Shown: positions 46,660 through 51,255 of the stretch, in pieces | How positions within the stretch are numbered: position 1 is the stretch's first letter | Layout of the letters: the number at the start of each line of letters is the position of its first letter | Sequence record: DRR723986_6657 | Length of the DNA stretch: 64,000 nucleotides | Direction: 5' to 3' (one strand) | Notes under the pieces: model-generated | Told to the model about the DNA's origin: nothing | The model's input: the letters and a program-made list of their open reading frames with translations, nothing else | The model's database searches: none | Position numbers and translations under genes: made by a program

Positions 46660-47694
46660 ATGGCAAAAACCGCAAAGCTCGCCAGCCCGGTCAATCCGGG
46701 GGCTGGCGCCAAGGAAGTTCTGGTCATCAAGCTGAGCGCGCTTGGCGACTTCGTGCTGGCGCTCGGCGCGATGAAAGCCGTGCGCGAGTTCCATCCTTCC
46801 GCCCGGATCACGCTGCTGACGACGCCGCCTTTCGAGGATTTCGCCAGCCATTGCCCGTATTTCGACCGGATCGAGACCGATGGCCGCCCGCCCACGATGA
46901 AGGCGACGACCGCGCTGCTGAACCGGATCCGCAAGTCAAAGTACGACATAATCTATGACTTCCAGACCTCCGGCCGGACGAAGAACTATTTCACGGCGCT
47001 GAGCCGCACGGGCAAGGCGCCGCTCTGGTCGGGCCATCATGAGAAGGCGGCCTTCTTCCATGACAATCCGGACCGGGCGACCATGCACTCGATCGACCGG
47101 CTGGCTGAACAGCTGGCTGTGGCAGGCGTCGCGCCGGACGGGCGCTGGAACCGCCAGAACTTCCCCAAGCCGGACCTAAGCTGGGTACGCCCGAAACTGC
47201 GCGATGCCCCGCGCCTTCAGCCGGCCTATTTCGGGCTGGAACAGCCCTATATGCTGCTGATTCCGGGAGCCTCCGAGCACCGGGAAGCCAAGCGCTGGCC
47301 GGTGGAACGGTTCGCCGAACTGGCCAAACGGATCGCCGATGCAGGCGTGACCCCGGCCATTATCGGCGGCAAGGCGGAGGGCAAGATCGCGCAGGACATC
47401 CTGAAGCTGGAGAAGCGGGCAAAGAGCCTCGTGACCCGGACGGACCTGTTCCAGATCGTGACCCTGGCGGAGAAAGCTGCCTTCGTCGTCGGCAACGATA
47501 CCGGCCCGATGCATATGGCGGCGATTGCCGGTGCACCGGGCGTGGCCCTGTTTGCCACCAATGAAAGCAATCCCGACCACGCAGCCCCGCGCGGGGCCCG
47601 GTCGCCGATCATCAATTCGGCACCGATGCTCGCGGAATTGGAAGTCGACACAGTCTGGCGGTCAATTCTGGCGCTGGGTGTGCTTCCCACTTGA
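46660..47694 (+). CDS. Glycosyltransferase family 9 (LPS heptosyltransferase-like)
   Basis: IKLSALGDFV, KRWP, GNDTGPMHMAA. Confidence 0.9.
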   Translation: MAKTAKLASPVNPGAGAKEVLVIKLSALGDFVLALGAMKAVREFHPSARITLLTTPPFEDFASHCPYFDRIETDGRPPTMKATTALLNRIRKSKYDIIYDFQTSGRTKNYFTALSRTGKAPLWSGHHEKAAFFHDNPDRATMHSIDRLAEQLAVAGVAPDGRWNRQNFPKPDLSWVRPKLRDAPRLQPAYFGLEQPYMLLIPGASEHREAKRWPVERFAELAKRIADAGVTPAIIGGKAEGKIAQDILKLEKRAKSLVTRTDLFQIVTLAEKAAFVVGNDTGPMHMAAIAGAPGVALFATNESNPDHAAPRGARSPIINSAPMLAELEVDTVWRSILALGVLPT

Positions 47695-47727
47695 CCGCAC
47701 CGCAAATTTTGCCGAGTGCGCTTTTCC

Positions 47728-47756
47728 TTGAATATGCCCGCAACCACAGGCATATT
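47728..47756 (+). promoter_or_regulatory. Sigma70-type promoter of infC
   Basis: TTGAAT-N17-CATATT. Confidence 0.55.
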
Positions 47757-47792
47757 CAGGCATCCTGAGAACAGCCACAAAGGAGATCGGCT

Positions 47793-48332
47793 ATAGCTCG
47801 CAGACCAATGAATGAAGCGCCCCAGAAGGACAAGGGACCGCGCACCAATGACGACATCAAGGCCGCAAAGGTCCTGTTGATCGACGAACACGGTGAGAAA
47901 CAGGGAGTGATGCCGCTGGCAGCCGCTCTTGATGCTGCGCGCGAAGCCAGCATGGATCTCGTCGAGGTTTCGCCGAACCAGGAAGTGCCCGTCGTCAAGA
48001 TTCTCGACTATGGCAAGCTGCGTTTCGAAGAGCGGAAGAAGAAAGCCGCTGCGAAGAAAAAGCAGAAGAATTCCGAACTCAAAGAAATCAAGATGCGCCC
48101 GAACATCGACACGCATGATTATGAAGTCAAAGCGAAGGCGATGACGCGTTTCTTTGAAGCTGGGGACAAGGTGAAGGTGACCCTTCGCTTCCGCGGCCGG
48201 GAAATGGCGCACCAGCATCTCGGCATGGAATTGCTGAACCGGGTGAAAGAAGACTTCGACGAAATGGCGAAGGTGGAGCTGGAGCCGAAGCTCGAAGGCC
48301 GCCAGATGACCATGGTCCTCTCACCGCGCTGA
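47793..48332 (+). CDS. infC: Translation initiation factor IF-3 with non-canonical ATA start
   Basis: DLVEVSP, KILDYGK, KEIKMRP, GDKVK, FRGRE. AAGGAG lies 7 nt before an in-frame ATA at 47793. Confidence 0.95.
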
Positions 48333-48374
48333 ACACCATGAAGAATCCCATGTAGGGACCATGTATACACCATG

Positions 48375-48410
48375 AAGAGCCGGCCGGGGCGGACCCTGCC
48401 GGCTCTTTCC
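48375..48410 (+). terminator. Hairpin terminator after infC
   Basis: AAGAGCCGGC...GCCGGCTCTT followed by only a short T run. Confidence 0.65.
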
Positions 48411-48466
48411 GTTCCAGGGCGGCACGGCGGGGCATTTTCAAGTGCATTTTCAGCCGCTTTCGCCCC

Positions 48467-48495
48467 TTGATTCCATTCCCCCAATCCGCCATAAG
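48467..48495 (+). promoter_or_regulatory. Sigma70-type promoter of rpmI-rplT
   Basis: TTGATT-N17-CATAAG. Confidence 0.55.
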
Positions 48496-48593
48496 CCGCC
48501 TCTTCCGAGTGGTGCTGGCGAACGGCATGCCCTCCACTCACGACAGACCGGGCCGCCTGCAAGGGTGCGAGCTCCACCAAAAAGGAGAATGAA

Positions 48594-48794
48594 ATGCCGA
48601 AGATGAAGACCAAGAAGGCCGCTGCAAAGCGCTTCAAGATCACCGCATCGGGCAAGCTGAAGCACGGCGTCGCTGGCAAGCGCCACCGCCTGATCAGCCA
48701 CAATGCAAAGTACATCCGCCAGAACCGCGGCACGTCCGTCGGTGCCAAGGCTGATGAATCCCGTGTGAAAAAGTTCCTGCCGTACGGCCTCTAA
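48594..48794 (+). CDS. rpmI: 50S ribosomal protein bL35
   Basis: MPKMKTKKAAAKRFKITASGK...FLPYG. Confidence 0.97.
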   Translation: MPKMKTKKAAAKRFKITASGKLKHGVAGKRHRLISHNAKYIRQNRGTSVGAKADESRVKKFLPYGL

Positions 48795-48840
48795 GCCGCC
48801 GTCGCTGACTTAATACTGATCTTGATAGAAGGAGGCTCAG

Positions 48841-49203
48841 ATGCCCCGCTCCCGCGCCAAAGTTCCTGCCCATGCCCGCCACAAGAAAATCCTGAAGCAG
48901 GCAAAGGGTTTCCGTAACCGCCGCAAGAATACGTTCCGCATCGCGCACCAGTCCGTCTGGGAAGCCGGCCAGTACGCCTATGTCGGGCGCAAAGTTAAGA
49001 AGCGAAAGTTCCGCTCGCTCTGGATCCAGCGCATCAACGCCGCTGTCCGCATCCACGACGAGGACATGAACTATTCGCAGTTCATCAACGGCCTGACCAA
49101 AGCCGGCATCGAAGTCGACCGCAAAGTCATGTCCGACATCGCCATCAAGGACCCGGACGCTTTCGGCGCCCTGGTTGCCCAGGCCAAAGCGGCTCTCGCC
49201 TAA
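48841..49203 (+). CDS. rplT: 50S ribosomal protein bL20
   Basis: [44 protein letters not shown]. Confidence 0.97.
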
Positions 49204-49237
49204 GCTCCTTACAGACTGAAGCAACAGGAACGATCCC

Positions 49238-49399
49238 ATGTCGAAGTCCCCGAACTCCGTCCTGCACCCGGCCAAGAAGCCGCGCGTCAAGCGCCGCAAC
49301 GCGACCTGGAAGGCCAATCTCGGCAAGCGGTCGAAAGTCCGCGTGTTTGGCAACACCAAGCGTGCGCGTCTCGCCCGCAAGAAAGCTGCCGGCAAGTAA
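49238..49399 (+). CDS. Small highly basic protein (53 aa), function unknown (absent from the ORF track)
   Basis: MSKSPNSVLHPAKKPRVKRRNATWKANLGKRSKVRVFGNTKRARLARKKAAGK*. CAGGAA RBS, codon choice like rpmI/rplT, upstream of the operon terminator. Confidence 0.8.
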   Translation: MSKSPNSVLHPAKKPRVKRRNATWKANLGKRSKVRVFGNTKRARLARKKAAGK

Positions 49400-49463
49400 G
49401 CTTTCTGCAGGCCCCGCGCCGTCGGTGACCGCCCGGAAGGGCATGCACCGAACCGAATGAGAG

Positions 49464-49490
49464 AAAGCCCGGCCATCGTGCCGGGCTTTT
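49464..49490 (+). terminator. Rho-independent terminator of the rpmI-rplT-smallORF unit
   Basis: AAAGCCCGGC-catcgt-GCCGGGCTTTT. Confidence 0.82.
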
Positions 49491-49559
49491 CCGTTTCCAG
49501 ATTTGCATCCCCCCGCGAAGCGCCTACAAAGCCCGCGGAACCAAATGAGGGGCAAGACC

Positions 49560-50636
49560 TTGTCCGATATTACGACGATCGAAAACGAAGCGTTGGCAGC
49601 GGTGGCTGCGGCGGGTGATCTGGAAACGCTGGATGCGGTCCGCGTGGCTGAGCTCGGCAAGAAGGGCAGGGTCTCCGGCCTGATGGGCTCGCTCGGCAAG
49701 ATGAGCCCGGAAGAGCGCAAGGAAAACGGCCCGAAGCTGAACGCGCTGAAAAACCGGGTGAATGATGCGATCACCGCCCGCAAGGCCGAACTGGAAGCCG
49801 AAGCGCTTGAGAAGCAGCTGGCCAGCGAAAAGCTGGACCTGACCCTGCCGCCATCTCCCGGCCCGAAGGCGGGCGCGCTGCACCCGGTGATGCAGGTGTT
49901 CGAGGAAGTCGCCGCCATCTTCGGCGATATGGGCTTCACCGTGGCCGAAGGTCCGGACGTGGAAGACGACTGGCATAATTTCACCGCGCTGAACTTCCCG
50001 GAAGGCCACCCCGCGCGCGAGACGCACGACACCTTTTTCATGAAGGCGCAGGAAGGCGACACGCCAAAAGTGCTGCGCACGCACACCTCGCCCGTGCAGA
50101 TCCGCACCATGATGGACCAGAAGCCGCCGATCCGCATCCTAGTGCCGGGCCGGGTCTACCGGAACGACTGGGACGCGACGCATACGCCGATGTTCCACCA
50201 GGTCGAAGGCCTCGTCATCGAGAAGGGCACCCATATGGGGCACCTGAAAGGCTGCCTGATCGACTTCGTGAAAGCCTTCTTCGAGGTCGACAATGTGGAA
50301 GCGCGCTTCCGCCCGCACTTCTTTCCGTTCACGGAGCCGTCAGCCGAGATGGATGTGAAATATACCCGCAAGGGCGAGACGATCGAGATCGGCGCCGGCG
50401 ACAGCTGGATGGAGATCCTCGGCTCCGGCATGGTGCATCCGAACGTGCTGCGCAATTGCGGTATCGACCCGAACGAATATCAGGGCTTCGCCTTCGGTAT
50501 GGGGATCGACCGCCTGGCCATGCTGAAATACGGCATGCCGGACCTGCGCCCGTATTTCGAGGCCGATCCGCAATGGACCCGCCACTACGGCTTCGCGCCG
50601 TGGTCGACGCCGAGCGTCAGCGGCGGGCTGAGCTGA
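49560..50636 (+). CDS. pheS: Phenylalanyl-tRNA synthetase alpha subunit
   Basis: [43 protein letters not shown]. Probable TTG start at 49560. Confidence 0.97.
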
Positions 50637-50646
50637 GGGCGCGGCC

Positions 50647-51255
50647 ATGGGCACCGGCAACAAGGCAGAAATGCTGATTGCGATCTGCGCAGTGATCACC
50701 AGCGCGATAGCGGTCTTCATTGCCTGGGACCAGGGCCGCGTGATGCGGGCGCAACAGCACGGGTCTGTTTATCCGGTGCTGCAAGCAGACGGCTATGTCT
50801 CGGCAGACCTGCATGCGCGCGAGATCGGTGTCAGGTTCCGCAACAGCGGTGTCGGCCCGGCGCTGATAGAGTCGGTGGACATGCTGAAGAATGGCGAGCG
50901 CCTGGAGAATCTCAACGCCTATCGTGACGAGCTGCCGGACGGTTATGACCTGTCATGGACAAGCATGGTGGGCCGCGCCGTGGCGCCGGGGGAAACGATC
51001 AACGCTTTGCGTATTTCCTGGCCGGCCGAGTCAATAAGCGCGATTGCGCAGGCGGAAACAGCGGCAAAATGGGGCGGGCTGACGATGAACGTCTGCTATT
51101 GCTCCGTGTTTCAGCGCTGCTGGGAGGTCGAGGGCCTCGCCCTGAATTCGCCAGCGCGGCGCGTAAAGGCCTGCACGCGCAGTGAAGAAGATGTTTTTGA
51201 GAACCTGTCCCCGGTCAATCAGGTTCAAGACGAATTAAATCCCGAACTGGAATAG
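50647..51255 (+). CDS. Hypothetical membrane-anchored protein between pheS and pheT
   Basis: N-terminal TM, NSGVGPALI and CYCSVFQRCW; 10-bp and 3-bp gaps to the neighbouring genes. Confidence 0.72.
   Translation: MGTGNKAEMLIAICAVITSAIAVFIAWDQGRVMRAQQHGSVYPVLQADGYVSADLHAREIGVRFRNSGVGPALIESVDMLKNGERLENLNAYRDELPDGYDLSWTSMVGRAVAPGETINALRISWPAESISAIAQAETAAKWGGLTMNVCYCSVFQRCWEVEGLALNSPARRVKACTRSEEDVFENLSPVNQVQDELNPELE

Follow-up and report, generated by a model that had tools for sequence, protein, structure and literature searches.

A conserved, ultra-basic gene at the end of the rpmI-rplT unit of Hyphomonas, a candidate for a genus-level ribosomal or ribosome-associated protein

Small, very basic ribosomal proteins confined to single lineages have been described in bacteria. 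bS22 of mycobacteria and actinobacteria is tiny, very basic, lineage-restricted and ribosome-bound, and was found by cryogenic electron microscopy (cryo-EM), and bTHX of Thermus, a protein of the 30S subunit, is a short, highly basic and lineage-specific binder of ribosomal RNA (rRNA). To our knowledge, additions to the bacterial set of ribosomal proteins have until now been made by cryo-EM, in a small number of lineages. Concerning the genes treated here, rpmI and rplT encode bL35 and bL20, which are early-assembling proteins of the 50S subunit, and in enterobacteria a short open reading frame (ORF), the pheM leader of pheST, is located between rplT and pheS and is followed by a terminator. 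As far as the passages of PMC5876184 on this protein go, bL37 has 24 amino acids, is present only in high-G+C actinobacteria and is encircled by 23S helices near H89. The present work concerns a gene of 53 codons, called orf53, which follows rpmI and rplT in a stretch of 64,000 nucleotides (nt) of the sequence record DRR723986_6657 (the whole stretch is referred to as the window). This gene would belong with the small, basic, lineage-restricted proteins of ribosomal type, and it is a credible candidate for a new genus-level ribosomal or ribosome-associated protein. The favoured reading, to which a probability of about 0.5 is given, is that its product is an accessory ribosomal or ribosome-associated protein that would bind rRNA.

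The comparison with relatives indicates that orf53 truly encodes a protein and that purifying selection acts on it. Among 5.8 billion proteins, a word-indexed search returned 26 relatives, mostly of 53 amino acids and 68-92% identical in alignment, and those that carry a name are hypothetical proteins from Hyphomonas. Twenty residues are invariant among the 27 sequences of the family. When each GTDB species was represented by one genome, a scan found 47 loci, all of them with an intact frame of 53 codons from ATG to stop, and the gene is single-copy in each genome. Hyphomonas jannaschiana VP2 and H. polymorpha PS728 are among the carriers. A Shine-Dalgarno (SD) sequence containing GGA (AGGA, GGAG or TAAGGAG) is present at the equivalent position, within the upstream 20 nt, in 47/47 loci, and in many of them TAAGGAG overlaps the rplT stop codon. 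The ratio of nonsynonymous to synonymous substitution rates (dN/dS), calculated by the Nei-Gojobori method (NG86) from 48 loci (the 47 and the window), 51 codons and 1106 pairs with dS > 0.05, was 0.165 for orf53, and 0.046 and 0.098 for rpmI and rplT of the same loci. Furthermore, the variable sites at codon positions 1, 2 and 3 are 22, 17 and 49, respectively, over these 51 codons. Distant homologues of 52 amino acids, with 40-46% identity, retain K14, L28, K30, R31, G38, N39, T40, K41, A43, R44, A46 and R47. It is because of this comparative evidence (intact frames, dN/dS and variation by codon position) that orf53 appears to be beyond chance; the openness of the frame alone is no evidence, since frames +1 and +2 are also stop-free over the 159 nt of the gene, in DNA with 62% G+C.

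A hidden Markov model (HMM) of the orf53 family, read without length limit against 1.84 billion representatives, found only five proteins at an expectation value (E) of 0.001 or below: a family member extended by a read-through tail, an orf53-L35 chimera of 50 amino acids, two distant homologues of 52 amino acids and a low-complexity protein of 2783 amino acids. No fused or longer form of orf53 was found among these representatives. Four database entries (P0003, P0005, P0026 and P0045) carry C-terminal extensions (62-89 amino acids) that diverge just before the normal stop, and they look like frameshifted or error-bearing short contigs and not like a longer isoform. In P0027, a predicted protein of 50 amino acids on an NCBI contig of 835 nt, the N-terminal ~22 residues are those of orf53 and the other ~28 are the C-terminus of bL35, with a common NAK at the seam; it arose either by chimeric assembly or by recombination.

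The place of orf53 in the genome is equally constant. The gene starts 11-34 nt 3' of the rplT stop in all 46 loci that have upstream DNA (locus L033, cut at its upstream end, is outside this count). A hairpin with a T-run lies at most 160 nt after orf53 in 38 of the 48 carrier loci under a strict rule, and most of the remaining 10 show one by eye, whose loop is longer or whose T-run is shorter. In the loci without the gene, the same rule detects a hairpin and T-run 23-30 nt after rplT in 24 of 27. Moreover, in 23 relatives without orf53, rplT is followed directly, at 23-30 nt, by a hairpin identical to the one after orf53 in the window (common stem AAAGCCCGGCC...GCCGGGCTTTT), and pheS starts ~125 nt after rplT. 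Since the terminator comes directly after rplT in the non-carriers, orf53 lies inside the rpmI-rplT unit and not with pheS. Judging from these loci, what sets carriers apart from non-carriers is one gene, located behind rplT and ahead of a conserved terminator, and as far as gene order tells, orf53 is co-encoded with the ribosomal protein genes, between rplT and the terminator of the unit.

On the downstream side the neighbours vary. About half of the carrier loci present an extra gene of ~1.2 kb between the orf53 terminator and pheS (e.g. L008 3163-4337), which is absent from the window. In a genome of another genus (G189, locus L081), whose rplT is 73% identical, the order is rpmI-rplT-orf52-terminator-uvrB, and the homologue (P0029) has 52 amino acids, is 46% identical in alignment A2 and lies 20 nt after rplT. 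Thus, orf53 stays by rplT where the downstream gene differs (the extra gene, uvrB), which argues for linkage to rplT and not to pheS. The second distant homologue (P0028 cluster) gave no locus in the metagenome scans, and genomic context is available only for P0029. The features of the window are collected in Table 1.

Table 1. Features of the rpmI-rplT-orf53 region in the window and extent of the RNA-library contigs on it.
Feature	Position	Strand	Remarks
infC	47808-48332
rpmI (ribosomal protein bL35, 66 amino acids)	48594-48794	+	First cistron; from the ORF list; conserved 5' of rplT in loci with that DNA
rplT (ribosomal protein bL20, 120 amino acids)	48841-49203	+	Second cistron; TAA stop 49201-49203
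Shine-Dalgarno CAGGAA	49225-49230	+	AGGA core ends 8 nt before ATG
orf53, 53-codon gene (6-kDa protein, isoelectric point 12)	49238-49399	+	ATG 49238, TAA 49397-49399
Intrinsic terminator	49463-49498	+	11-bp GC-rich stem, 6-nt loop, T-rich tail
RNA-library contig X1	49021-49592
RNA-library contig X2	49021-49537
RNA-library contig X10	49015-49582
RNA-library contig X11	49127-49347

The gene order in the window is infC, a hairpin, a leader of ~260 nt, rpmI, rplT, orf53, a hairpin with T-run, pheS, an ORF of 202 amino acids and pheT. The terminator hairpin (49463-49490), found by folding and by our own hairpin and T-run rule, consists of GAAAGCCCGGC / CATCGT / GCCGGGCTTTT and is followed by CCGTTTCC; its stem begins 63 nt after the end of orf53. 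A generic promoter and terminator scan of 47500-50000 listed no site on the + strand, and the orf53 terminator is missing from it because its T-run rule is stricter. Between rplT and orf53 there is no terminator, as the gap of 34 nt is too short for one. The orf53 product contains 11 lysines, 8 arginines, 1 histidine and no aspartate or glutamate, with an isoelectric point of 12.0 and a mass of 5.98 kDa. Lysine and arginine amount to 36% of its residues versus 29% in bL35 and 22.5% in bL20. Codon use is similar to that of rpmI and rplT (AAG for 9 of 11 lysines, CGC or CGT for 7 of 8 arginines), and the G+C content at third codon positions is 0.87, versus 0.81-0.82 in rpmI and rplT and 0.76 in the background; at 53 codons this resemblance is a weak discriminator.

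An earlier sequence-only reading of the window had described an ORF 34 nt after the rplT stop, with a CAGGAA ribosome-binding site and a product of 53 amino acids with these same counts of lysine, arginine and acidic residues, and both the layout and the translation match exactly. Its statements that codon use mirrors that of rpmI and rplT, and that an intrinsic terminator lies after the ORF and none before it, were borne out as given above. The same applies to its placing of orf53 as third gene of the rpmI-rplT operon, given that the gene is upstream of the terminator that directly follows rplT in the non-carriers. The term 'unannotated' was true only of the gene track used in that reading, as the public orthologues are registered as 'hypothetical protein', e.g. 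in Hyphomonas adhaerens MHS-3 and under MULTISPECIES Hyphomonas.

Regarding the flanks of the unit, the segment 48333-48593 presents a hairpin with T-run after infC (~48380-48420) and then the leader before rpmI, and it may be the site of the promoter of the unit and of any L20 autoregulatory site. Rfam gave only a chance match to a long non-coding RNA (E 0.33) in 47000-51000, and no L20-leader family. The 202-amino-acid ORF between pheS and pheT (50647-51255, + strand) has a hydrophobic N-terminus and no Pfam family, and is present in only some relatives, with identities of 34-97%.

RNA-library contigs at least 90% alike to the window span both orf53 and the rplT-orf53 junction; they come from four runs, each of a different study, and among them are contigs that extend past the terminator to ~49540-49592. 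The indels listed in these contigs are all outside orf53 (49208, 49212, 49223, 49407, 49412 and 49494), and the listed substitutions within the gene are synonymous or correspond to A12S and S32A, which are residues found in orthologues. Co-expression of orf53 with rpmI-rplT, as far as these contigs bear on it, is only suggestive.

Concerning family membership, the searches place orf53 in no described protein family. For the window protein Pfam returned 0 families at E <= 10, and 19 family members yielded only five single-member chance matches (best E 0.016, KOW); NCBIfam gave only a meaningless match of 11 bits. The sequence-only reading could not assign the peptide to any known ribosomal protein family, and this agrees with the lack of a significant match in Pfam, NCBIfam or the PDB chains; no match to bL34 or to another described family was found. 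In the ESM Atlas, the nearest clusters are unnamed, and their scores of 0.89-0.90 are in the range reached by shuffled proteins. The possibility that orf53 is a duplicate of bL35, bL20 or IF3 was rejected (hhalign probabilities of 0.5%, 0.1% and 0.2%, respectively, with alignments from the same loci), as were a defence protein (0 matches of three proteins in PADLOC) and a phage protein (none in PHROGs for the window protein). Two distant homologues showed a weak match to a PHROGs family of unknown function (E 0.005 and 0.02). AlphaFold2, run with 19 sequences, predicts a helix at residues 15-33, a loop with the invariant FGNTK (37-41) and a helix at 41-52. The predicted structure is a plain helical hairpin and has moderate confidence, with a mean predicted local distance difference test score (pLDDT) of 71.9 and a predicted template modelling score (pTM) of 0.32.

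The range of the gene is narrow, comprising most Hyphomonas species and one other genus of the family. In a family-level search of 262 genomes, in which E <= 1e-20 was taken as a strong match, 56 strong matches to orf53 were found. The strong matches fall in one block of 79 Hyphomonas-like genomes (G001, G100-G177), 55 of which carry orf53. Six weak matches across the family (E 0.002-0.009) were taken as chance, as they are partial and three contain stops. In the order, 17 of 401 sampled genomes match, all of them within the block, and across the 262 genomes of the family and the 401 of the order no orf53 was found outside the block and the one other genus. On the other hand, 24 genomes of the block do not match, and in 23 of them rplT was found, 79-94% identical to rplT of the window.

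A tiny protein with no acidic residues, co-encoded with two 50S proteins, is most simply read as a ribosomal rRNA binder. In this proposal, orf53 would be transcribed together with rplT and translationally coupled to it, and through this coupling its product would be made in step with the two 50S proteins. The product, with two predicted basic helices joined by the invariant GNTK turn, would most probably bind rRNA, and it would fill or stabilise an rRNA surface, like other tiny lineage-restricted ribosomal proteins. The 50S would be the likelier subunit because of the operon in which orf53 is found, and the role would be accessory and not essential because close relatives live without the gene. 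The co-expressed, ribosome-associated peptide proposed in the sequence-only reading stands as a real gene and the last cistron of the unit, but a core ribosomal role is weakened by the 23 relatives that lack it.

Several results weigh against this proposal. First, these 23 close relatives present no copy of orf53 elsewhere in the genome at E <= 0.01; since they live without it, the gene is dispensable, which argues against a core ribosomal role. The dN/dS values also place orf53 under less constraint than bL35 or bL20. When the A2 profile was searched with hmmsearch against 177,635 distinct PDB sequences, which include the ribosomes of many lineages, nothing was found below E 0.45, and the four matches are all eukaryotic uS12 (E 0.45-0.68). 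Regarding structure, Foldseek gave 0 matches to the orf53 model, and the best Z of VIA-align was 3.2, on generic long helices. A role of orf53 as a stand-in for S21, L36 or L34 was rejected, because all three are present in 2 genomes with the gene and 3 without it. In the 23S rRNA of 8 carriers and 6 non-carriers no signature is clearly tied to orf53: 7 of the 261 variable columns separate the two groups, 4 of them as clean two-state splits, but splits that contradict this grouping occur equally often or more often (6, 7 and 10 columns), and no conclusion can be drawn from rRNA co-variation. The RNA-library contigs, moreover, are no proof of transcription, since DNA is possible, nor of a single rplT-orf53 transcript.

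The history of the gene adds a further difficulty for the ribosomal proposal. A tree built from rpmI, rplT and pheS comprises 39 carriers and 24 non-carriers in 63 rows, after removal of 13 of the 76 loci for incomplete genes, and it needs at least three gains or losses of orf53. The non-carriers are basal (11 rows, with L100 and L104), form a nested clade of 9 rows that is sister to the clade of the window, or stand alone (L086). The nested clade is a mosaic at the DNA level: the 3' end of rpmI and the 3' end of rplT are 82-87% like the basal non-carriers, and the middle of rplT is 98-100% like the window. This mosaic makes recombination a possible source of part of the pattern, and recombinational allele replacement may explain part of the distribution of carriers and non-carriers. 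Four contigs with a rpmI-rplT-orf53-pheS arrangement of Hyphomonas type (L024, L027, L029 and L043) are filed under the names of Acidobacteria or Sulfopaludibacter metagenome-assembled genomes, and these labels look like binning or labelling errors.

The alleles of the neighbouring genes follow the presence of orf53. In 39/39 carriers, bL35 has E55 (alignment column 54) and is without a one-residue insertion; of the non-carriers, 20/23 have V at this column and 21/23 have the insertion. In bL20, residue 6 is A in 39/39 carriers and N in 22/23 non-carriers. The exceptions to this pattern are L086 and L100 (compared over 48594-49203 of the window in L001-L047 and L082-L104). As evidence of contact between the products, this co-variation was rejected, because haplotype linkage over 700 bp and the DNA mosaic with recombination explain it more simply. 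A bolder version of the ribosomal proposal sees in orf53 a new bacterial ribosomal protein family whose birthplace was the rpmI-rplT operon, in Hyphomonas and a genus close to it, and which is still polymorphic among species; the bL35 and bL20 alleles could then reflect co-adaptation of the three products on the 50S. This version is possible, if on the doubtful side.

Among the other explanations, the one that survives best is that orf53 encodes a small basic nucleic-acid-binding protein that is not a stable component of the ribosome, such as a chaperone of rRNA folding or assembly, an RNA chaperone, or a nucleoid-associated protein riding on a strong operon. It is rather unlikely, and yet it deserves serious consideration, as the isoelectric point of 12, the lack of acidic residues and the predicted helices fit it, and so do the lack of resemblance to any known ribosomal protein, the dispensability of the gene in the 23 close relatives and the absence of an rRNA signature linked to it. 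The observation that speaks against it is the fixed place in a ribosomal protein unit, with a spacing of the coupling type, in 47 loci and in a second genus, because such an arrangement is better suited to making the protein in stoichiometric amounts with bL35 and bL20 than to a DNA-binding role of its own.

Far less probable is that the translation of orf53 matters and not its product. According to this explanation, ribosomes arriving to within ~65 nt of the terminator would tune the stability of the rplT messenger RNA, termination or read-through into pheS. The 63 nt between the end of orf53 and the terminator stem would suit such a mechanism, as would the RNA-library contigs that pass the terminator. 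Nevertheless, the amino-acid sequence is under selection, given the dN/dS of 0.165, the 20 invariant residues in 27 sequences and the motif kept at 40-46% identity; in addition, relatives have the same terminator without any ORF, and about half of the loci have a gene other than pheS immediately downstream.

That orf53 is a spurious, functionless open frame in GC-rich DNA, as the three open + frames and the long shadow ORFs on the minus strand could suggest, is scarcely credible and is already contradicted by the 47 intact loci and the dN/dS analysis. Of 51 codons, 49 vary at position 3, but only 22 vary at position 1 and 17 at position 2; the start codon and its SD are kept from locus to locus, and related contigs show indels only outside the frame. 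Finally, a pheM-like leader peptide for the attenuation control of pheST, to which the position of orf53 upstream of pheS with a terminator behind it might point, can practically be set aside, as it is already contradicted by the sequence comparisons: there is 1 phenylalanine in 53 residues, the terminator exists without the ORF in 23 relatives, and another gene or uvrB comes next in many loci.

Returning to the ribosomal proposal, orf53 is a sequence-defined candidate that comes with an unusually clean comparative design, in which closely related species, carriers and non-carriers alike, have this operon and terminator in common. Full-text searches of the literature found no paper on the orf53 protein, nor a new ribosomal protein described for Hyphomonas or for the rpmI-rplT operon, nor proteomic or structural data on Hyphomonas ribosomes. 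If the bolder version of the proposal holds, sister species would offer a natural example of a ribosome in the course of acquiring or losing a protein. If the product is not ribosomal, it would still be a conserved, probably well-expressed and ultra-basic protein, filed as hypothetical, in stalked budding bacteria.

In comparison with known systems, one likeness is to the N-terminal extension of eukaryotic uS12 (40S protein S23), an rRNA-contacting basic tail. The alignment pairs profile residues 9-31 with residues 9-32 of a yeast-type uS12, and among the letters in common are L, K, RV, RRN, W, N and KKR; this match is not significant (E 0.45-0.68, over 23 residues of low complexity) and is a lead, not homology. 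The pheM leader resembles orf53 as a short ORF after rplT with a terminator behind, but orf53 is not rich in phenylalanine, is conserved as a protein, has a terminator that exists without it and stays with rplT when pheS is elsewhere. bL35 and bL20 share with orf53 one transcription unit, a basic and small product and similar codon use, whereas hhalign indicates that orf53 is not a detectable duplicate of either neighbour. bTHX is likewise short, highly basic and lineage-specific, but orf53 differs from it in having no Pfam match and no match among the PDB sequences.

A further parallel is found in bL37 and bS22. Ribosome binding is demonstrated for these two proteins, whereas for orf53 it is proposed. 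The profile search of all PDB chains gave no sequence similarity between them and orf53, which is longer (53 amino acids), has a much narrower range, of one genus and one neighbour, and is missing in some species of the genus. Nevertheless, orf53 is, like bL37 and bS22, very small, very basic and confined to one lineage, and those proteins, which sit in rRNA pockets, were themselves overlooked or uncharacterised until density was matched to a small ORF.
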